DNA of 14,365 nt from a virus (Duplodnaviria > Heunggongvirae > Uroviricota > Caudoviricetes). The stretch lies in the IMG/VR virus record IMGVR_UViG_3300037420_000666, one strand, 5' to 3'. Below, piece by piece: positions 2,573-12,813 of this stretch; position 1 is the first letter of the stretch; every line of letters starts with the position of its first letter. A program made the position numbers and the translations under genes. Under the pieces are notes generated by a model that worked only from the letters and a program-made list of their open reading frames with translations, was not told the DNA's origin and did not search any database.

Positions 2573-3820
2573 TTATGCGGCGAGGGCGGCAGCCCACATG
2601 TCGGGCTGCGTGGCGCCGTTCTGGTAGACGATCTCGGGCAGCACGGTGTCGGCGGTGGGCTCGTCGCCTTCCCAGCCGTCCGGCCACGTCTCGGCGGCGA
2701 TCAGCTCGCGGATGCGCGCCTCTTCCTTGGCGTTGATCAGGCTGATCTCGGGCCGGCGCAGGGCGCGCGCCGCGGCGTTGCACTCGGCCTGGATGCCCAG
2801 GACGCGCTCCAGCGCCATGGAGCGGGCCTCCAGCGTCAGCGGGCCCATGCGCTGCGGGTTCTTGGCGATCGCGCCCGACTTCAGGCGCTCGGCGCCGGCC
2901 TTCTTCAGGCGGTGCTGCGGTTCGCGCAGCTCACGCCACAGCCGCTTCAGCCCGCGCAGCGGCGCCAGGTACTGCCAGTGCGGCAGGGCCAGCACCGTCT
3001 CCAGCGCCTTCTCCTCCTGGGCCAGCGGGCAGCCGATGCAGCCTGTGCGCGCGTTGATCTCCTCGGCCTCGTCGCCGCCGTAGGCGTCCGCGATGGCGGC
3101 CGTGCTCCAGTCGCCGAACTCGGCCGCGGGCGCCCAGTGCTTCAGCCACTCCCACACGTGGCACACGCGCCAGTGCAGCAGCGGCGCGAGGGTTGCAATG
3201 CGGCCGCGCAGACCCTTCGCGTTCGGCAGCACCTGCTGGTACCAGCCTTGGCCGCACTCGGCGCCATCCTTGCTGCAGCTCATTTCGATGCGCCGGTCAC
3301 GGATGGCGCTCTCGCCCTGGCGCACGCCGGTGATCATCAGGAAGTTGCCTTGCAGCTGCAGCGCGTCCAGGCGCTGCTCCAGCGCGTGCTGCATCGGGTC
3401 GATCTTGATCTGCCGCGTGCACCACCTCAGCGTGTTGTTGTTCGGCGGCGGCACACCGCGACCCAGGATGTAGACCATAAAGCGCTTGTCCATGGGCGCA
3501 CGCACCACGTCCACCTGGATGCCGCGCTCGCGCAGCTCGTCCATGATCTGTTCGGCTGCGATGGCCAGCGGCGGCAGCTCCTGGCGCGTGTCGGCGTAGA
3601 AGATGGTCAGCGACTGCGGCGCCGCGATCTGCCCGGCGTCGATCAGCCAGCAGATCATGGTGAGCGTTGCGCTGCTGTCCTTGCCGCCTGACCAGGCAAT
3701 GCCCCAGTGCGGATGGTCCGGGCCGTAGGCCTGCAGCGACTGAATCGTGAGCTCGATGCTCTCGGTCATCTGCAGGCGCTGCGCGGTGGCGTCGAAGAAG
3801 CTGCTCTGTATGCGGCTCAT
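2573..3820 (-). CDS. PP-loop ATP-pyrophosphatase / PAPS-reductase-like protein (DndC- or phage DUF3440-like)
   Basis: Start set at ATG 3820 (MSRIQSSFFD...) with GAGGGAAGGA upstream; the longer frame starts at GTG 3889. Contains the canonical PP-loop SGGKDS (WGIAWSGGKDSSATL) and a cysteine-containing C-terminal half (TGCIGCPL). A 14-nt gap to the next gene suggests one operon. Confidence 0.8.
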   Translation of the reverse strand: MSRIQSSFFDATAQRLQMTESIELTIQSLQAYGPDHPHWGIAWSGGKDSSATLTMICWLIDAGQIAAPQSLTIFYADTRQELPPLAIAAEQIMDELRERGIQVDVVRAPMDKRFMVYILGRGVPPPNNNTLRWCTRQIKIDPMQHALEQRLDALQLQGNFLMITGVRQGESAIRDRRIEMSCSKDGAECGQGWYQQVLPNAKGLRGRIATLAPLLHWRVCHVWEWLKHWAPAAEFGDWSTAAIADAYGGDEAEEINARTGCIGCPLAQEEKALETVLALPHWQYLAPLRGLKRLWRELREPQHRLKKAGAERLKSGAIAKNPQRMGPLTLEARSMALERVLGIQAECNAAARALRRPEISLINAKEEARIRELIAAETWPDGWEGDEPTADTVLPEIVYQNGATQPDMWAAALAA

Positions 3821-3926
3821 CGTCCTGTCCTTCCCTCGTTTCTTCGTTGAGCCGGGGCGTCCACCACCCCGGCCCACCACCCCGATCACGCGCCCAACGC
3901 GTGCGGTGCGGTGATGCGGTGCACGG

Positions 3927-4592
3927 TCAGTGCACCCTCTTGAACTCCATGACCCACACCCACGGGTTCGCGCCCCATGAGCCGGCGCCGTTGATCTGCT
4001 CCCACAGCAGGCGATAGCCGCCCACGTAGTCGACCTCGGCCTCGTAGTGCGCGGCCATGCCGATGCGCTGCGCCGCGGCCTGTGCCTGACGGCTGCGCTC
4101 GGTCTGGTGCGTCGGGCACTTGCTCCACTCGACGCCTTCGGCGATGGCCTCGGCCCTGCTGCAGTCCTGCAGCCGCTCCACGCGCACGCTGGTCAGTTCC
4201 AGCGTGATGCGCGATGCCCAGCGGGGCATGTGGATCGAGGGGCGCCAAAACTCCATCGTGTCGCCCTCGTCCGCCGCGTAAATCACAGCAGAGCCGTCAG
4301 GGCGGCGCGACGGTATGTGGCGGTACACGTCATAACCACGCTCAAAGGCCTGCCACGTCTCGCGCACCCACAGTCGGTCGCCGGGTCGGCCGTAGGGACA
4401 CAGTTCGGCGGCCGCCTTCGGTCGCACCCACGACGGATCTGCAGGTTGCAGGCAGGCTGCCAGGCCCGGAGTGCGGTGCGTGATCTTCACGGCGCGCCGC
4501 GTCTGCGTCTTGGTGCCAGCCAGCAGCGCCCGCACCATCGGCGCGCTGAAGAGGATGGGGCGCTCGCGCGCCGCAGTGGTTGCGGCGCTCAT
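3927..4592 (-). CDS. Conserved phage protein, tentatively ASCH/PUA-like
   Basis: 221-aa ORF with ATG start and GAGG upstream. N-terminal ILFSAPMVRALLAGTKTQTRR resembles the ASCH G-x-K-x-x-x-R strand motif; assignment is from memory and tentative. Its start overlaps the stop of the upstream gene (4590-4596). Confidence 0.6.
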   Translation of the reverse strand: MSAATTAARERPILFSAPMVRALLAGTKTQTRRAVKITHRTPGLAACLQPADPSWVRPKAAAELCPYGRPGDRLWVRETWQAFERGYDVYRHIPSRRPDGSAVIYAADEGDTMEFWRPSIHMPRWASRITLELTSVRVERLQDCSRAEAIAEGVEWSKCPTHQTERSRQAQAAAQRIGMAAHYEAEVDYVGGYRLLWEQINGAGSWGANPWVWVMEFKRVH

Positions 4593-4593
4593 C

Positions 4594-5211
4594 TCAGTGC
4601 CTCGCCTCGCTGGTGGCGATGAACGCGTCCGTCGCGTCCATCACGGGCGCCTCGTCGTCGAGCAGGTCGGCTTGCTCGGGGTGGTCGGCGTCGAACGCGG
4701 CCTTGCTGCCGTCGATGGCCTCTTGCTTGGGCACCGGCGGCGTGAGCGTGATCACGATGCCCTGGCCGTTCTTCTTCCACAGCATCCCGGCCGCTTCTTC
4801 GTCCAGCTCGCTGGTGCCCACCCGGAAGCTCAGGTCCACGCTGCCGCCTTCGCACGGGTGGACCTTGAAGCCGTCCACCTTGCACGTGCCCAGGCGGATC
4901 GCGCTGCCGTCGTCGATGCCGTGGGCCACGGTGACGGCCCAGCCCTCGAAGCTGCGCTCCAGGCTCAGCGAGCCGATGCCCTGGGCGCGCAGCAGCGGCG
5001 TGGACTCCTCGATGCCGTCGAGCTGCGGCTGACCGTCTGCAGCCTTGTAGAGGGACATGCGCAGGCCCGGGGCCAGCGTGTCGAGGATCGTGTTCGGCGC
5101 GGTGATCGTGATGCCCAAGCTGACGGCGGGCACGCGCTCGTCGCCGTGCATCTCGGTGCGACCGGTGAAGCTGGTCAGCTTGGCCTGGGTGTCGGTGAGT
5201 TGGAACTGCAT
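4594..5211 (-). CDS. Hypothetical phage protein with acidic C-terminal tail
   Basis: 205-aa ORF, ATG at 5211 preceded by AGGAAA. No family recognised. C-terminal DADHPEQADLLDDEAPVMDATDAFI is strongly acidic. Stop is 1 nt from the next start. Confidence 0.7.
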   Translation of the reverse strand: MQFQLTDTQAKLTSFTGRTEMHGDERVPAVSLGITITAPNTILDTLAPGLRMSLYKAADGQPQLDGIEESTPLLRAQGIGSLSLERSFEGWAVTVAHGIDDGSAIRLGTCKVDGFKVHPCEGGSVDLSFRVGTSELDEEAAGMLWKKNGQGIVITLTPPVPKQEAIDGSKAAFDADHPEQADLLDDEAPVMDATDAFIATSEARH

Positions 5212-5245
5212 TTCCGGTTTTCCTGTCGTGAGGTGAGGGGCGGGA

Positions 5246-5566
5246 TCAGTACGGAACGGCCTCGGCCTCGATGCCGGCCGGCGTCTTGCCGCACTTGCAC
5301 GCTCCGCAGCCGGCGCACTTCTCGGCCAGGGCCTGGGCGTGCGCCTCTTCGGCGGCGATCTGCGCCACGGTCTCAGCGGGCAGGCCCAGGCGCTCGGCGG
5401 CGCGCTGGATTGCGTGGTCGGTGTTGCCGTGCACCTGGCGCATGGTCTCGACGGTGCTGGCTACGGTCGCGCGGGAAACGATGGGATCGGGCATATCGGT
5501 CTCGGTTGTGGTCATGCGGTGCCGGGCGCTGGCCCGGCGGGTTTTGAACTTGGAGCGGTGGGGCAT
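5246..5566 (-). CDS. Hypothetical small Cys-rich protein
   Basis: 106-aa ORF whose ATG overlaps the stop of the upstream gene (TGATG at 5564-5568). GC-rich third codon positions through the N-terminal extension. C-terminal cluster CAGCGACKCGK may bind metal. Internal ATG at 5515 is an alternative start. Confidence 0.5.
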   Translation of the reverse strand: MPHRSKFKTRRASARHRMTTTETDMPDPIVSRATVASTVETMRQVHGNTDHAIQRAAERLGLPAETVAQIAAEEAHAQALAEKCAGCGACKCGKTPAGIEAEAVPY

Positions 5567-7483: not shown

Positions 7484-8491
7484 TCAGGCCTCCAGCGCTT
7501 CGCCGCGCACCGCGATCAGCTTCTCCAGCCGCGTGCGCTCCTCGCCCTCGGGCAGCGTGGCCACGTCGTCGCCGATGAGCAACAACACCTGGGCGTCGCT
7601 GCAGCTGCCGATGCGCTGCTCCAACGCCACCACGTCCAGGCCCGGGGCAGCATCGGCGGCCGGCATGTCCACGGTGCGCGCAGCGTCGGCGTCGATCGCG
7701 GCTTGCTTCAGGCGCGGGTGGTGCTCGGCGAGGTGCTTGCGGTTGGCCGGGCCGGTGGACTTCCAGAATTCCTGGTACGCGGCCACGCCCTCGGCGGCGG
7801 CGTTCTCGGCGGCCTCCAGCAGGCCGGCGGGCATCTGCGGTGCTTCGGGCGCCTGCGGCTGCACGGTGTTGGCCGGGCCCATGTTCTTGGGTGGCGCGAT
7901 CTGCTCCAGCTCGTCGGGCGTGTAGATGCCCAGGATGGCGCCAGGCGTGTAGAGGCGGGCCCAGTTCTTGGCCTGCAGATATCCAAGCTGCTGTTTCGGG
8001 TTCGTCTTCCACAGCGGCGAATTCCTGGTCGTGACCGACTTCATGCACAGCCACTCGCCCCAGGTGATCTCCTGCTCGCCACGCAGCACCGCGCCCGCGC
8101 GGCACTCGACGGCTTCGCCGGTGCCCTTGAACTCGTACTTGAACGTGCCGTGGATCGCGCCGCTGGCCTGCACCACCGCGATGACCAGTTGCGCCTCGTA
8201 GCCCAGCGTGCCGTTGACCACGTGCGTCTTCTGGGCCACGGCGTAGGGGTTCATGCGCCACTGCGCGGCCTGCATCGCCACCGCCAGGCAGTCGCCCGTC
8301 TTGCCCTGCAGGTGCTTGGGCACGGTGATGGTGGCCTTGGCCATCTCCTGGGCCACCACGGCCAGGGCGTTCATGGTGGTGGCGTCCATCAGCAGGTCCA
8401 GCGCGCCAACGCGCGTCGGGCCTGCGGCCATGGCGGGCTGCTGCTCGATGGGGGCGGCCAGGGCCAGCGGTTGTTCGGTCATCGTGTTCAT
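7484..8491 (-). CDS. recT: RecT-family single-strand annealing protein
   Basis: 335-aa ORF. Motifs VPKHLQGKTGDCLAVAMQAAQWRMNPY...THVVNGTLGYEAQL...ECRAGAVLRGEQEITWGEWLCMKS fit the RecT/Red-beta family. ATG at 8491 preceded by GAGGA. Immediately upstream of the YqaJ exonuclease. Confidence 0.9.
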   Translation of the reverse strand: MNTMTEQPLALAAPIEQQPAMAAGPTRVGALDLLMDATTMNALAVVAQEMAKATITVPKHLQGKTGDCLAVAMQAAQWRMNPYAVAQKTHVVNGTLGYEAQLVIAVVQASGAIHGTFKYEFKGTGEAVECRAGAVLRGEQEITWGEWLCMKSVTTRNSPLWKTNPKQQLGYLQAKNWARLYTPGAILGIYTPDELEQIAPPKNMGPANTVQPQAPEAPQMPAGLLEAAENAAAEGVAAYQEFWKSTGPANRKHLAEHHPRLKQAAIDADAARTVDMPAADAAPGLDVVALEQRIGSCSDAQVLLLIGDDVATLPEGEERTRLEKLIAVRGEALEA

Positions 8492-8503
8492 GTGGTCCTC
8501 GGG

Positions 8504-8656
8504 TCAGTGAGAGAGGGCGCGCACCGCAGCGCGCAATGCGGTGAAGGGGCGGGCCCCGATGGCGCGCCAGGCGGTCCAGCAGGCGGCCACGCGGCGGCCG
8601 GCGCCGGGGATCTGGATGTGCGCCGTGGCGGCGCGGGAGGCGGTTGCTGCGTCCAC
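8504..8656 (-). CDS. Possible small ORF (about 50 aa), uncertain
   Basis: Fills the 167-bp gap between the zinc-finger gene stop (8659-8661) and the RecT start. Would start at GTG 8656, 2 nt after that stop. Product is low complexity (A/R-rich) and may be an artefact of GC-rich sequence. Confidence 0.2.
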   Translation of the reverse strand: MDAATASRAATAHIQIPGAGRRVAACWTAWRAIGARPFTALRAAVRALSH

Positions 8657-8658
8657 GG

Positions 8659-9135
8659 TCAGGCTCCCTTGCAGAAGTCGATGAGGGCGCGCACGCCGCG
8701 GCGGCGCTGGGTGGTGCCTCGCACGATCCAAAGGCCGGTGCCGGGCCAGAAGTCCACAAGCTGCTTCTGTCCGGCTCGCACAACCAGGTGCGCGCCGTCG
8801 TTCTTGCTTGTGAACTGGATGCCTTGCTCGGCCAGCATCTGCGCGCCCTCGGCGCGGTTGTTGGCGCGGCGCTGCTGGTCGGCCTGGATGTCGCCTTTCA
8901 CGGCGCGCCAGAAGTCGCCTACCGTTTCGCCGTCGTCATCGTCGCGCGGGCTCTTGGGAGGCTTGATGCCGTGCGCGTCCTTGCGGTGCTGGCTCAACTG
9001 CTCCGGCTGCGCAAAGCGGCGCGTGCACTTGTCGCAAGCGTGCGGCTTCTCTTGCTTGGCCGGCTGCTGGGTGGCGGCCTTGACCTTGCGGCGGTGCGCG
9101 TCGCGCTCGCGCCAGATGTCTCCGATGTCTCCCAT
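8659..9135 (-). CDS. Phage protein with a classical C2H2-type zinc finger
   Basis: Start set at ATG 9135 (MGDIGDIWRERDAH...) with GGAG upstream; the longer frame begins at TTG 9180. Contains CDKC-x12-H-x4-H (HACDKCTRRFAQPEQLSQHRKDAHG), which is C-x2-C-x12-H-x4-H spacing. The C-terminal half (GAHLVVRAGQKQLVDFWPGTGLWIVRG) was not recognised. Confidence 0.7.
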   Translation of the reverse strand: MGDIGDIWRERDAHRRKVKAATQQPAKQEKPHACDKCTRRFAQPEQLSQHRKDAHGIKPPKSPRDDDDGETVGDFWRAVKGDIQADQQRRANNRAEGAQMLAEQGIQFTSKNDGAHLVVRAGQKQLVDFWPGTGLWIVRGTTQRRRGVRALIDFCKGA

Positions 9136-9136
9136 G

Positions 9137-9229
9137 TCAGGCTCCAACGAGGACGCGGAACGCGTAGCCCGCGAGCGCAATCAGCGCCGTGCCGGCCATC
9201 ACGATCAGCTCGGGTGCGATGCGGTTCAT
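9137..9229 (-). CDS. Putative 30-aa hydrophobic micro-protein
   Basis: MNRIAPELIVMAGTALIALAGYAFRVLVGA, a single predicted transmembrane helix. Its ATG shares ATGA with the upstream stop (9226-9229) and its stop lies 1 nt before the next start (9135). The longer 87-aa frame has an implausible N-terminus overlapping neighbours. Confidence 0.4.
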   Translation of the reverse strand: MNRIAPELIVMAGTALIALAGYAFRVLVGA

Positions 9230-9363
9230 GCGGCACCCCGGCGCAGCTTCTTCAGCTGCTCGATGTCGGCACGGATCAGGGCGCGCGTGGCGGCCTTCAC
9301 TTCGGCGCAGTTCCGGCGCGGCAGAAGGATCTGCAGCGCGCGCTCGATGACTGCGGCGCTCAT
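9226..9363 (-). CDS. Hypothetical 45-aa protein
   Basis: Internal ATG 9363 (MSAAVIERALQILLPRRNCAEVKAATRALIRADIEQLKKLRRGAA) with GAGG upstream. Start lies adjacent to the upstream gene's stop codon (9360-9362) and its stop overlaps the next start. Likely helical. Confidence 0.45.
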   Translation of the reverse strand: MSAAVIERALQILLPRRNCAEVKAATRALIRADIEQLKKLRRGAA

Positions 9364-9866
9364 GCCGCGAGCCTCGACTGGTAGGCGTCGATCGCCGCAT
9401 CCGTCTTGGCCGCCTCGCACTCCAGGCGGTAGTCGCGCTCGCACGCGGCTTGCCACAGCTCGGCCGTCCTCGTGTCGATCAGGTCGGCGTCCAGGCCGTT
9501 CACGCGCTCCAGGATCACCAGCGGGCTCACGCGGCCGCTGGGGTCCTCGTCGGTCTCAATGCGGTACTGCAGCAGCACCGGGCGAATGCCGGCCTGCATG
9601 GTGCAGGTGTAGACGCCGCGCTCTTTGGAGGCGCCCAGGTACTGCTCCAGGTTGCTGATCTCGCGACACAGCGCGTGCACGTGGCCACGCAGGTTGCTCG
9701 CCTCGATGCGCGAGGCGCACAGCTCGCGGCGCAGCAGGCGCTCGGCGTCGGTGCGGCTCGTGAGGTCGTCGCCGTTCTCGGCGGCGCGGGCCTCGCCGAG
9801 CTGGGCGCACGTCGCGGCGATGCGCTCGGCGCGGTCCTGGGGGCGGGTGGTGGCGATGGCGGCCAT
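9360..9866 (-). CDS. Hypothetical phage early protein
   Basis: 168 aa from ATG 9866 (the track's first M at 9869 is GTG). Start overlaps the upstream stop (TGATG). No family recognised. Confidence 0.65.
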   Translation of the reverse strand: MAAIATTRPQDRAERIAATCAQLGEARAAENGDDLTSRTDAERLLRRELCASRIEASNLRGHVHALCREISNLEQYLGASKERGVYTCTMQAGIRPVLLQYRIETDEDPSGRVSPLVILERVNGLDADLIDTRTAELWQAACERDYRLECEAAKTDAAIDAYQSRLAA

Positions 9867-10513
9867 CACTTGCCCTCCGCTGCGGCGCCGTCATCCATCG
9901 GGTCGAAGACGCTGCCGTACATCGCGCGGTGCATCTCGTTCGCGGCAGCAAACGGACTCCCTCCCGTTTCGCGCTGCTCCATGGCGATTGCCATGATGTC
10001 CATGCCCTTGATCTGCTCGCGCAGCGCTTGCACCTCTGCATTCAGCCGTTGGATCTCCGCGTCGCGCGGGTCCGCCTGCGCCACCGTGCCGCCGCCTTGC
10101 ACCTCCGCTGCAGCGATGGCCTTGTCCAGATCGTCGCGGGCGCCGTTCCGGCTGCTCAGCAGGGAGAAGTAGTTCGGAGCGTTGGGGCCCTGCAGCTCGC
10201 GGTTGTCCAGCGCGTCCTGTGCGTCCAGGAAGTCGGTCAGCGCCGCCACCACGTTCAGCAGCTCGTCGCGCTGCTCGCGCAACTTCTGCGCCTCGGCAGC
10301 CAGTGCCGGCGCAGACGCCACCAATTGCGCTCTCGCTTCATCCGCCGCGTCGTCTGCGCCGTCGCTGTGGCACATGAAGCAGACGGTGGTGTCGGCGTCG
10401 CGCATGACGTGGCGGCTCCACTGCATGTATGGGCGCGGGTCGCGCTCAATGAACCAGCGTTCTTGCTGGACTGCCTGCGCCGTCCCGGCGCTGGTGTTGG
10501 TTTGGTCGGCCAT
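9866..10513 (-). CDS. Hypothetical phage early protein
   Basis: 215 aa, ATG at 10513, 4 nt after the upstream stop. Has a CxxC-like pair (VCFMCHSDG) and an acidic, coiled-coil-like C-terminal half. No family recognised. Confidence 0.65.
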   Translation of the reverse strand: MADQTNTSAGTAQAVQQERWFIERDPRPYMQWSRHVMRDADTTVCFMCHSDGADDAADEARAQLVASAPALAAEAQKLREQRDELLNVVAALTDFLDAQDALDNRELQGPNAPNYFSLLSSRNGARDDLDKAIAAAEVQGGGTVAQADPRDAEIQRLNAEVQALREQIKGMDIMAIAMEQRETGGSPFAAANEMHRAMYGSVFDPMDDGAAAEGK

Positions 10514-10516
10514 GGC

Positions 10517-10780
10517 TCAGGCCCCCAGGCGAGCGATCAGCATGGCGTCGGCCATGGCGTAGGCGCGGCGGGCATCGTCAAGACGGCCCGCCGTCGTGCT
10601 GCTCTCGCCGCGCTGCTCCATGACCATCGGCAGCGCCGCGACCGCGAAGTAGTCGCGCAGCGTCATGCCGGCCTGCGCGTGGCTGTAAATCTGCGTCTCG
10701 TGCAGCGTGGCCGGGCGCGCGAACGCCGGCCCGCCGTCGTTGATCTGCTGCGCCGCCCCGGCGCGGGTGGTGTCTGCCAT
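10517..10780 (-). CDS. Hypothetical protein, first gene of the leftward early operon
   Basis: 87 aa, ATG at 10780 preceded by GGAGGA, about 30 bp downstream of the PL-like promoter and operators. Occupies the position lambda N holds, but no N-like arginine-rich motif was seen. Confidence 0.6.
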   Translation of the reverse strand: MADTTRAGAAQQINDGGPAFARPATLHETQIYSHAQAGMTLRDYFAVAALPMVMEQRGESSTTAGRLDDARRAYAMADAMLIARLGA

Positions 10781-10806
10781 GTGTCCTCCGTGGGGTTGAT
10801 GGAGGA

Positions 10807-10835
10807 ATGTTAGGCATAGCCTTACTTGCCGTCAA
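10807..10835 (-). promoter_or_regulatory. PL-like early-left promoter (candidate -35 TTGACG, 17-bp spacer, -10 TAACAT on the minus strand)
   Basis: Minus strand reads TTGACG (top 10830-10835), a 17-bp spacer, TAACAT (top 10807-10812), then GGAGGA and the ATG at 10780. Operator repeats lie in the spacer and just upstream of the -35. Confidence 0.45.
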
Positions 10836-10848
10836 TAGGCTGCGCCTA
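10808..10848. promoter_or_regulatory. OL-like operator pair for the CI-like repressor
   Basis: TGTTAGGCATAGCCTTA (10808-10824; inverted arms AGGC/GCCT around a 3-bp spacer) and the perfect 13-bp palindrome TAGGCTGCGCCTA (10836-10848), centres about 25 bp apart. The 17-mer recurs exactly at 12793-12809. Confidence 0.55.
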
Positions 10849-11006
10849 CTTTTTGTTTGGCGGCGCCTTATCTGCTCGATGTGAAAGGCCCGTCGGGTAG
10901 CGGGCGCAGGAGTGCTGTAGCGCGCCGCCGCACTGCGACGCGCGGCCTACTGCTTCACCGTCCACGCGCTGGCCCGCATTGCTGCGCAGCGCATTCCCCA
11001 GACGTG

Positions 11007-11028
11007 AAAAAGCCCGCACGAGGCGGGC
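11007..11028 (-). terminator. Intrinsic (rho-independent) terminator of the repressor/cargo transcript
   Basis: On the minus strand a GC stem GCCCGC(11023-11028)/GCGGGC(11012-11017) with a 5-nt loop is followed directly by UUUUU (top AAAAA 11007-11011). Lies about 30 nt downstream of the J-domain gene stop (11060) and upstream of the PL region. Confidence 0.55.
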
Positions 11029-11059
11029 GCTTGGCTTGGCAGTGCGGCGGCGGCAGTGC

Positions 11060-11590
11060 TTAGTTTCGTCCGATCCAGCGGATACCAAGCCAGGCCAAGC
11101 CCGAAAGCAATGGAAGCGACAAGTTCAGGGCCAGGAACCCGTTCTCGGTAAGGTTGTAGTCCCATCTCCAGATGACACCCCAGAGCTGCACAGCAACTAC
11201 CCACAGAATGCTGGCAACAATCCAGGCGCGTGTCCGTCGCCTGCACTGCTCGCGGATCGCCTTCAAGCGCACTTCTGGCTTGGCAGCCTCAAGCACCGAC
11301 AGCAGCTTGGCGTGCCCGCCTCCATCTGCATATCGAAGGTAAGCGTCGTACTTCTTGCGCCGCTCCGGGTCTCCGAGGGTGTGCAAGGCCTGCTGAGTGA
11401 GCGCATACCGGGCGGGCGCGTCCTTGCTGCCACAGCCCGTTTTTGGGTGGTAAGTGGCGCTGAAAAAGCTGTGCGCCATTTCTATGTAGTCTTGCGTGGC
11501 ATTCGGCTGTAAATCAAGAACTCGATAGAAATCAACGATTCCATCTGCCCTTTTGAACTCGTCTAATACACGCTGCGCATCCTCGTCCAT
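11060..11590 (-). CDS. Membrane-anchored J-domain (DnaJ-like) protein with HPK in place of HPD
   Basis: 176 aa. Residues about 20-85 align along the whole J-domain pattern (DFYRVLDLQPNATQDYIEMAHSFFSATYHPKTG...ALHTLGDPERRKKYDAYL versus DnaJ DYYEILGV...YHPDRN...AYEVLTDSQKRAAYDQYG). The tripeptide is HPK (codons CAC CCA AAA, top 11441-11449). Two C-terminal hydrophobic segments (AWIVASILWVVAVQLWGVIW, FLALNLSLPLLSGLAWLGIRWI). Lower GC than the flanks; in the repressor-cargo region. Confidence 0.75.
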   Translation of the reverse strand: MDEDAQRVLDEFKRADGIVDFYRVLDLQPNATQDYIEMAHSFFSATYHPKTGCGSKDAPARYALTQQALHTLGDPERRKKYDAYLRYADGGGHAKLLSVLEAAKPEVRLKAIREQCRRRTRAWIVASILWVVAVQLWGVIWRWDYNLTENGFLALNLSLPLLSGLAWLGIRWIGRN

Positions 11591-11645
11591 ACCGCTCCCT
11601 TGTGATTATATTTAGCGAATTAACCTGAAATCAGTTTCGAATTTC

Positions 11646-11657
11646 TCGAATATTCGA
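11646..11657. promoter_or_regulatory. Perfect 12-bp palindrome TCGAATATTCGA with adjacent TTCGAA, upstream of the J-domain gene
   Basis: Located in the AT-rich 78-bp spacer between the 77-aa ORF and the J-domain gene. A perfect TATAAT (minus strand, top 11605-11610) lies 14 nt upstream of that gene's ATG. Candidate regulator-binding site and internal promoter. Confidence 0.35.
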
Positions 11658-11668
11658 TTGCGAGTGAG

Positions 11669-11902
11669 TCAGCGTATTCGCTGAGCCAATTCATCATCAA
11701 GCGCAGCTAACATCCCGCGAGCAAATGTTGGATTCCGATGGGCTTCGCCGCTGGTATTTACAACGAACCCTCGTTGTTTTGTCATTGCGGCGTATGCGAC
11801 CCCTATCACTTCGCCTCGTTCCGCTCGCTCCAGAAGGTTTCTTAAGTCGGCCACCACGTCGTGTGGGGCCTCCTCCCGAACGAGGCGAAACGGAGGCTTC
11901 AT
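11669..11902 (-). CDS. Hypothetical 77-aa protein coupled to the repressor gene
   Basis: ATG overlaps the repressor stop (ATGA at 11899-11902) and is preceded by AAGGAAA. Sequence MKPPFRLVREEAPHDVVADLRNLLERAERGEVIGVAYAAMTKQRGFVVNTSGEAHRNPTFARGMLAALDDELAQRIR; no family recognised. Lower GC than the flanks. Confidence 0.55.
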   Translation of the reverse strand: MKPPFRLVREEAPHDVVADLRNLLERAERGEVIGVAYAAMTKQRGFVVNTSGEAHRNPTFARGMLAALDDELAQRIR

Positions 11903-12744
11903 GACTTCTTTTCCTTGCCGCTTTCATCGGTACGGATGATCCGCTCCATGCCCGGCATGGGGCGGTCGCTGAAGTACTTACCGCCGGGCGGCTGTTCCTT
12001 CTGAACCGGAACAGCGCGCGCGGTGCGCCCGATCCTTTCCAAGAATCGAGGCAATTCCTCCCGTGGTTTTATTTTTCGTGCCGGCACAGGGTGCGGCACG
12101 TAATAGACCCAAGTTACTTCGGTGGGGCTGAAACTTAAAACTTCCGGCGAGTTATAACTTCCAAATCTCCACCCGCCGCGCCGGCTCAGCAGTCGCTTGA
12201 GCATAGTCGAACCATCGGCCAAGCGCACAAGAACGTCATCCTCAAGATCGGGGTCGCTGCTTGGCTCGACTAGCGCATATTCGTTTGGCATGTATTTGGG
12301 GATCATCGAATCTCCGACGACCCGGCAGACAAACGCGTAATCGTCGCTGCTGAGCACCTCGGCAAATTCGGTGGCCTCCGAAAGCCAGTTGTCATCGAAT
12401 ATCCGCTCCGGCATTCCTCCCTGGCAGGTGCCGCACACGTAGACCGGGCGGACGCTGCGCGCCGGGAGTGTCTGAGGCGGAGCACTCTCTGTCGCAACCA
12501 TGACTGACAGGCCAGCACTGACCGTGCCCGGGTAGGCCGTCAGGCCCCAATGCTCCGGCCCAACCACATTTGCAAACAGAGCCCAGAGCCCCGGCAGCTT
12601 CTCCTTCGAGATGGTTCCGCGGTTCACCCAGTCCTGGATCGTCGGCGGCTTGACCCCGAAATGCTCCGCCAGGGCTTTCTTGGTGATGCCCTTTTTTAGT
12701 CTGGCCGCCTCGATGGCTTGCCCTAGTTCGATCCCGGTAAGCAT
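11899..12744 (-). CDS. CI/LexA-like prophage repressor (N-terminal XRE-type HTH, C-terminal S24 peptidase domain)
   Basis: 281 aa. N-terminal HTH (LGQAIEAARLKKGITKKALAEHFGVKPPTIQDWVNRG) and an S24 autoproteolysis domain with Ser and Lys motifs (VVGDSMIPKYMPNEYALV ... DGSTMLKRL). Carries an unusual ~60-aa C-terminal tail. Divergent from a Cro-like gene; AGGA lies 10 nt upstream of the ATG. Confidence 0.9.
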   Translation of the reverse strand: MLTGIELGQAIEAARLKKGITKKALAEHFGVKPPTIQDWVNRGTISKEKLPGLWALFANVVGPEHWGLTAYPGTVSAGLSVMVATESAPPQTLPARSVRPVYVCGTCQGGMPERIFDDNWLSEATEFAEVLSSDDYAFVCRVVGDSMIPKYMPNEYALVEPSSDPDLEDDVLVRLADGSTMLKRLLSRRGGWRFGSYNSPEVLSFSPTEVTWVYYVPHPVPARKIKPREELPRFLERIGRTARAVPVQKEQPPGGKYFSDRPMPGMERIIRTDESGKEKKS

Positions 12745-12760: not shown

Positions 12761-12813
12761 TAAGGCAGTGAGTAGGCAATTCCTTGCAGAATTGTTAGGC
12801 ATAGCCTTATCAT
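12761..12813. promoter_or_regulatory. OR-like operator/promoter region between the repressor and Cro-like genes
   Basis: Contains TGTTAGGCATAGCCTTA (12793-12809, identical to 10808-10824), an imperfect copy TAGGCAATTCCT (12773-12784) and half-site TAAGGC (12761-12766). Candidate rightward promoter: -35 TTGCAG (12784-12789), -10 TATCAT (12808-13), which places the transcript start at or next to the cro ATG (12820). Confidence 0.5.

Follow-up and report, generated by a model that had tools for sequence, protein, structure and literature searches.

The window, by which we mean the whole 14,365-nt stretch of viral DNA analyzed here, carries a lambda-type immunity region with two similar hairpins between its last repressor-operon gene and its early-left promoter. 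The most probable reading of this junction is that immunity-operon transcripts end at the first hairpin, T1, the functional equivalent of lambda T_IMM, and that the second, T2, is a decayed resident terminator that would act as a slight back-up at most. This reading draws on the anatomy and folding of the two elements, on the operators and promoter next to them, and on the arrangement of the same junction in nine related phages.

Layout of the immunity region

Along the minus strand, PRM and a cI-like repressor are followed by the small ORF, the J-domain gene, T1, the spacer, T2, OL3 to OL1, and PL (Table 1). A Cro-family gene is divergent to the repressor, and 3' of PL lie an 87-aa ORF, further early genes, and RecT. 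The 15-bp palindromic operator TTAGGCATAGCCTTA is present at both OL1 and OR1, with weaker copies at OL2 and OL3, and the PL-like promoter is the sole sigma-70-like match of the strict scan in the window. The sequence-only reading had spoken of a "PL region" and an "immunity transcript"; the shared OL1/OR1 operator, the repressor, Cro, and the PL context together make both terms well founded.

Table 1. Features of the immunity region, with positions in the window unless a relative is named
Feature	Position	Strand	Basis or remark
First early-left gene, 87 aa	10517-10780	minus	
PL-like early-left promoter, TTGACG-17-TAACAT	10807-10835	minus	Promoter scan
OL1 (TTAGGCATAGCCTTA)	10810-10824		Overlaps -10 hexamer of leftward promoter; identical to OR1
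OL2 (TAGGCTGCGCCTA)	10836-10848		Overlaps -35 hexamer; palindrome read from sequence; conserved in L040
OL3 (TTTGGCGGCGCCTTA)	10856-10870		Two mismatches to TAAGGC-N3-GCCTTA; aligns with L040 operator
T2 tail, C-UUU-CACAUC (CUUUCACAUC)	10878-10887	minus	10878-10886 on plus strand is GATGTGAAA
T2 hairpin, GCCCG / CUACCCGA / CGGGC	10888-10905	minus	Degenerate, predicted weak terminator hairpin; arms GCCCG 10905-10901 and CGGGC 10892-10888
T1-T2 spacer, ~95-100 nt, GC-rich	10906-11000	minus	
Inverted-repeat arm B	10923-10941		In spacer, 17 nt upstream of T2 hairpin
T1 U5 tract	11007-11011	minus	Followed by tail CACGUC, 11001-11006; 11001-11009 on plus strand is GACGTGAAA
T1 stem-loop, GCCCGC / CUCGU / GCGGGC	11012-11028	minus	Scan, folding, identity with L040; arms 11028-11023 and 11017-11012, loop 11022-11018
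Inverted-repeat arm A	11034-11052		Between J-gene stop codon and T1; 17/19 complementary to arm B
J-domain (DnaJ-domain) cargo gene, 176 aa	11060-11590	minus	Pfam PF00226, E = 1.6e-10; last repressor-operon gene
AT-rich gap, GC 0.385	11591-11668	minus	Ahead of J-domain gene
Small ORF, 77 aa (orf77)	11669-11902	minus	Directly 3' of repressor gene
Repressor, HTH and S24 domains	11899-12744	minus	Domain match
OR1 (TTAGGCATAGCCTTA)	12795-12809		Covers -10 of rightward promoter
Small-ORF copy in L007	1467-1682		
Small-ORF copy in L039	3316-3597		
Small-ORF copy in L040	4379-4636		
Small-ORF copy in L041	4339-4599		
Small-ORF copy in L051	5072-5281		
Small-ORF copy in L197	3800-4057		
Small-ORF copy in L200	3831-4088		

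Judged by its repressor, the closest cultured relative is Acidovorax phage Aval (44% identity). Blastn of the region found no match among cultured phages and, among plasmids, only a 36-nt terminator-like match. Scans of viral and metagenome sequences with the repressor and the J-domain protein returned no relatives, and a pattern scan of metagenomes for the OL2/-35 motif gave chance matches only. Within the window, GCAGTGC was considered as a repeated binding motif and occurs 6 times against 6.95 expected. GC3 ranges from 0.51 to 0.70 in the immunity-operon genes (11899-12744, 11669-11902, and 11060-11590) and from 0.85 to 0.93 in the early-left genes (7484-10780); the immunity module differs in compositional history from the rest of the phage.

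The small ORF always lies directly behind the repressor gene. Its product has 71 to 93 aa, no Pfam match, and 44 to 98% identity (47 to 98% when the relatives are compared with one another), and it is conserved across phages that differ in repressors, operators, and cargo. In these phages it apparently accompanies cI as a constant partner.

The cargo slot that follows is variable and holds unrelated genes in eight relatives, including L007, L040, L041, L197, L200, and L051. In the window it is occupied by the J-domain gene, with a GC content of 0.57 compared with 0.67 to 0.73 in the early genes. The J-domain protein has one homologue only among 5.8 billion database proteins, 75% identical and encoded in the heteroimmune relative L039 (about 3633-4163), which has a different immunity region. 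A tblastn search of phages with the J-domain protein found none, and a genome-contig search returned only generic DnaJ domains from unrelated bacteria. The C-terminal half of the protein looks hydrophobic and Trp-rich. A prophage-expressed J-domain co-chaperone in a rex-like slot may have a lysogenic-conversion or exclusion function.

Morons are phage cargo cassettes that carry a promoter and a terminator of their own (Cumby et al., "The moron comes of age," PMC3594210), and the J-domain gene has some moron features. It lies in a variable slot, has a lower GC content than the backbone, recurs in heteroimmune L039, and is followed by a terminator of its own, T1; own terminator and variable presence among related phages are thus both found. 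Ahead of it, the AT-rich gap contains a perfect TATAAT (11610-11605), and a separate cargo-gene promoter may lie there. However, the corresponding -35 hexamer, CTGATT, is poor (18-nt spacer, 11605-11634), the strict scan makes no call, and the L039 homologue has no evident promoter ahead of it. The GC content of cI and orf77 is equally low, so the cassette boundary of the J-domain gene is unmarked by composition.

The T1 and T2 hairpins

T1 starts 31 nt 3' of the J-gene stop codon (11060-11062), and the operator/promoter region comes next. Its stem consists of six G-C pairs closed by a 5-nt loop, with UUUUU directly 3' of the stem, and folds with a dG of -12.3 kcal/mol; 12 of 200 shuffles fold equally well. 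It is one of only two minus-strand matches of the terminator scan in the 14.4-kb window, where all matches of the scan taken together (8) equal the number expected (8.0). The T-tract score is 3.79 and the d'Aubenton-Carafa-type score +21.9, the latter serving as a rough guide only. With a GC-rich stem within the 5- to 14-bp range, an adjoining U run, and a position past a stop codon, T1 is a canonical intrinsic (Rho-independent) terminator as far as sequence can tell. The sequence-only reading had described exactly this element, a minus-strand terminator with a GCCCGC/GCGGGC stem and U5 at 11007-11028 behind the J-domain gene, and the folding calculation it called for bears the description out.

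The all-GC stem of T1 would form in the nascent RNA, and U5 would release the transcript about 45 to 50 nt past the J-gene stop codon. Termination at this point would keep repressor-operon transcripts off the OL operators and the PL promoter. Such insulation of PL, also proposed from the sequence, finds support in the anatomy of T1, the operator-controlled promoter beyond it, the nine relatives, and the lambda T_IMM precedent. Because the T1 stem is short (6 bp) and GC-rich and is equaled by 12 of 200 shuffles, a fraction of transcripts may plausibly pass it, and T2 would then have a role.

T2 sits about 120 nt beyond T1 on the minus strand and ends 17 nt before OL3. It repeats the T1 arrangement with a weaker U tract, as had been noted at 10878-10905. 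Five G-C pairs enclose an 8-nt loop, a C separates the stem from the U run, and the run itself has three U only. Folding yields -9.1 kcal/mol, a stability matched by 35 of 200 shuffles. The terminator scan does not call T2 because it has fewer than five T in eight; its T-tract score is 1.51 against 3.79 for T1, and its d-type score, with the same reservation as above, is -40.5 against +21.9. The predicted termination efficiency of T2 is correspondingly low: its contribution is probably little or none, and it may still stop a minority of read-through transcripts.

The two elements are nonetheless alike. Both units are 30 nt long, from GCGCCCGC to CAYRUC, with the same orientation and the 8-nt 5' block GCGCCCGC in common, and they agree at 20 of 30 positions without gaps. 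When the extended units are aligned locally with gaps, the score is 31, compared with 22.4 +/- 3.7 for shuffles, 30 of 1,000 of which reach 31. The plus-strand motif GAYGTGAAA is present in the window only at 10878 and 11001, where 0.06 occurrences are expected, and two matches were seen in 0 of 200 shuffles. The alignment and 9-mer statistics together indicate that the T1/T2 repeat is real, modestly exceeding the likeness of two members of one terminator class.

Read on the opposite strand, GAYGTGAAA consists of the three final U of the U tract and the next six bases (CACRUC), and its surroundings recur widely. The 19-mer GTGCGGGCTTTTTCACGTC is found exactly in 23 IMG/VR contigs with otherwise unrelated flanks, typically just past a coding region and often just ahead of promoter/operator-like sequence. 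The looser pattern GCCCGCCNNGTGCGGGCTTTTT matches at least 120 IMG/VR contigs (L076-L195) with diverse flanks, and the same stem, loop, and U-run type throughout these contigs led us to reject the idea that T1 is a special mobile element. Among the matches listed, 119 distinct examples show a preference in the bases after the U run, with Y at position 3 in 112, G at position 4 in 75, and C at position 6 in 81. The T1 tail CACGUC fits this preference at every position, and the T2 tail CACAUC misses the G only. GAYGTGAAA, being a complemented U-run end with a class-typical tail, therefore belongs to a terminator class that is very common, and it is not a separate module. The tail after GCCCGCCNNGTGCGGGCTTTTT reads roughly Y-D-Y-G-Y-C, and NNYGYC is present in 56 of the 119 examples among the matches listed. 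The tail bias may be partly phylogenetic because a similar ribosome-binding site stands behind many matches: many GCCCGCCNNGTGCGGGCTTTTT terminators have CCTGGAGA and a start codon next, and homology of the loci, not a signal for termination, may explain part of the bias.

Junction terminators in relatives

Two routes led to more distant relatives: shared proteins, identical or homologous, and the terminator pattern. All eight metagenomic copies of the phage itself show 100% identity wherever they cover 10400-11700. The common layout in the relatives is repressor, conserved small ORF, variable cargo slot, one or more terminators, and OL/PL. All nine relatives have a strong terminator at the junction, those that were folded giving a dG of -12.5 to -17.2 kcal/mol with at least five U, and in six of the nine it abuts the outermost operator, where T2 lies in the window. 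The comparison with related prophages that the sequence-only reading had proposed thus returns a junction terminator in every relative and two terminators in L040 and L041. T2 is the weakest of the junction terminators compared (5-bp stem, 8-nt loop, three U).

A single strong terminator is present in L007, L039, L042, L197, L200, and L051. In L007, L197, and L200 its tail runs into the first operator, GGCGGGCTTTTTCTTGCC, and the L051 terminator is of the T1 sequence type. L007 is heteroimmune; it encodes an identical copy of the 87-aa first early-left protein behind a different immunity region, and its homology to the window picks up again just past the PL -10 hexamer. L041 carries an operator-fused terminator and a second one about 60 nt upstream, behind an extra membrane-protein (cargo) ORF.

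L040 is the closest relative and nearly homoimmune, with 57% identity in the repressor, 78% in Cro, and 89% over 46 nt of the OL region. Its two terminators are about 260 nt apart. The upstream one (5141-5171) is identical to T1 at 30 of 31 nt, has unrelated flanks, and follows an unrelated 113-aa gene. The downstream one, a strong counterpart of T2, ends 16 nt before OL3, compared with 17 nt for T2 in the window; a MAFFT alignment of the two gives about 57% identity, which in GC-rich DNA establishes positional equivalence only. Between the L040 terminators, on the reverse strand at 5175-5422, there is an apparent frameshifted small gene (KKDLEIALTPLKTDLAVLKWGVG / LVIAGVAAQLMKSFFG*), convergent with the immunity operon and ending 8 nt from the upstream, T1-like terminator of L040. 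It is possibly a decayed cargo gene.

T2 thus occupies the slot at which relatives keep a strong, operator-fused resident terminator, and in this phage that terminator would have decayed to a 5-bp stem, an 8-nt loop, and a U run of UUU. In the simplest history, cargo cassettes would arrive with a terminator upstream of the resident one, or recombine at it; a terminator placed after the variable cargo slot would then do the former job of T2, and as long as it worked, the resident copy would be free to decay. The T2 tail is closer to the T1 tail than to that of the L040 counterpart, so T2 could instead have an origin other than the resident terminator. It may be a local duplicate of T1, or it could be the terminator of a lost cargo gene.

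Alternative readings and known systems

The spacer between T1 and T2 offered few features. It has no convincing ORF or coding-like GC3 signal, and no sigma-70-like promoter even under relaxed rules. Rfam 15 gave no match at gathering thresholds, the best sub-threshold hit being isrK (18 bits versus 50 required), over T1 only. Comparison with the L040 spacer revealed no likeness, the score being matched in 175 of 500 shuffles. A gene remnant was rejected since six-frame fragments of the relatives' immunity-to-PL regions match only translated T1, and a small RNA was rejected for want of a promoter and an Rfam family. An inverted repeat, arms A and B, brackets T1. Its 17 matches in 19 are reached in 0 of 200 dinucleotide shuffles of the region, and the arms are the only such pair with a 20- to 150-nt loop in the whole window. 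They pair in the minimum-free-energy folds, the overall z-scores of which (-0.4 to -1.1) are no better than shuffles, and part of their sequence is of the low-complexity (GCC)n/(GGC)n kind, a property that shuffling does not reproduce. No comparable inverted repeat was found in L040, L041, L007, or L039. A MITE was considered and dropped: no target-site duplication is readable at the ends, and L040 has T1 without the arms.

Four other readings of the junction were weighed against a working T1 and a decayed T2. That both terminators function in tandem, T2 catching read-through and making OL/PL insulation tighter than either would alone, is unlikely, though less so than the rest. The sequence-only reading had offered tandem terminators as one option, and the positional part of it stands: T2 retains a GC hairpin and UUU in the correct orientation at the site of the relatives' strong terminator, L040 and L041 have two strong terminators at the junction, and pairs also occur in the unrelated viral contigs L046 and L056/L059. 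The functional part fares worse, as the short stem, long loop, interposed C, and three consecutive U of T2 fail both the scan and the score, its fold is no better than shuffles, and the junction terminators folded from relatives all have at least five U and a dG of -12.5 kcal/mol or lower. E. coli rrnB T1-T2 exemplifies tandem intrinsic terminators. Like rrnB, the window has two co-oriented hairpin-plus-U elements no more than about 120 nt apart where a transcription unit ends, but T2 lacks a proper U tract and its stem is weak, and it probably does not work as one half of a tandem pair. At the other extreme, T2 might never have been a terminator, its likeness to T1 being coincidental and the interval a nonfunctional GC-rich spacer left by cargo-cassette recombination. 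Short GC hairpins are common in DNA of 68% GC, terminator-like sites in the window are as frequent as in shuffles, and the T2 fold and the extended-unit alignment (30 of 1,000) are unexceptional or marginal. We nevertheless regard coincidence as quite improbable, given that GAYGTGAAA is confined to these two hairpins, that the units share length, 5' block, and orientation, and that T2 lies within 1 nt of the position of the strong L040 terminator relative to OL3.

The remaining two readings assign the repeats a function other than simple termination. One extends the duplicated regulatory module put forward in the sequence-only reading: GAYGTGAAA and its hairpin would bind a protein or otherwise regulate, for example as an extra operator or an antitermination site, instead of being terminator sequence. 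The one point in its favor is the repetition itself, and we consider it extremely improbable: the same tail type stands behind unrelated phage terminators (119 distinct among the matches listed), the motif does not resemble the phage operators TAAGGC-N3-GCCTTA, and it lies upstream of PL, whereas nut/put sites act downstream of PL in lambda and HK022. The other is that the T1-T2 interval encodes a functional RNA in which arms A and B form a helix of about 17 to 19 bp around T1 for RNase III-type processing or stabilization, with its end at T2; variants are a sib-like retroregulatory device and a small RNA derived from the 3' UTR. The 17/19 complementarity, its uniqueness in the window, and its dominance in the minimum-free-energy folds point toward this, and the preferred reading, a working T1 with a decayed T2, leaves the inverted repeat unaccounted for. 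Against it stand the unexceptional overall folding energy, the low-complexity content of the arms, the lack of a comparable repeat in the four relatives searched, a spacer with neither promoter nor Rfam match, and metagenomic copies that are 100% identical; nor is there a known cause for RNA polymerase to read through T1. We think a functional RNA very improbable. In lambda sib/tI retroregulation, read-through completes an RNase III hairpin, and the window shares with it the geometry of a terminator hairpin between complementary arms, and that only; unlike in sib, read-through and RNase III cleavage are hypothetical here, the arrangement is not conserved in the four relatives searched, and no antiterminated promoter is known to feed the operon. 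Since the T1 hairpin lies between the arms, the long helix would form only in RNA that reads through T1. There is a small chance that arms A and B with the weak T2 make up a read-through-dependent RNA device, a duplex of about 17 to 19 bp that would be processed or degraded and end at T2. If true, the device would be a posttranscriptional fail-safe against immunity-operon read-through disturbing OL/PL.

The closest parallel for T1 is lambda T_IMM, an intrinsic terminator that lies directly 3' of rexB and at which transcripts from PRM end (bioRxiv 10.1101/2021.04.19.439022). Like T_IMM, T1 is of the intrinsic type and lies directly behind the last cargo gene of the repressor operon, just upstream of OL/PL; transcription through it is co-oriented with PL, and the gene order and the operator shared between OL and OR are as in lambda. 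The position between the last cI-operon gene and OL/PL, in the same orientation, is found again in all nine relatives. The window differs from lambda in having no sequence homology to it, a different host group, a J-domain protein in place of RexA/RexB as cargo, and a spacer of about 100 nt with a degenerate second hairpin between terminator and OL3. A T_IMM-type immunity terminator with a vestigial second copy is ordinary biology and will not surprise phage biologists.

For annotation, the finding gives a predicted 3' end for the lysogenic transcription unit of repressor and cargo and, with it, places the left limit of the immunity module of this uncultured lambdoid phage of Burkholderiales type. 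It also yields a rule for the group, in which a conserved pair of cI and small ORF is followed by a variable cargo slot, with one or two terminators closing the slot directly ahead of OL3. The presence of the same terminator sequence beside unrelated cargo genes fits the idea that mosaic exchange has its joints at terminators.
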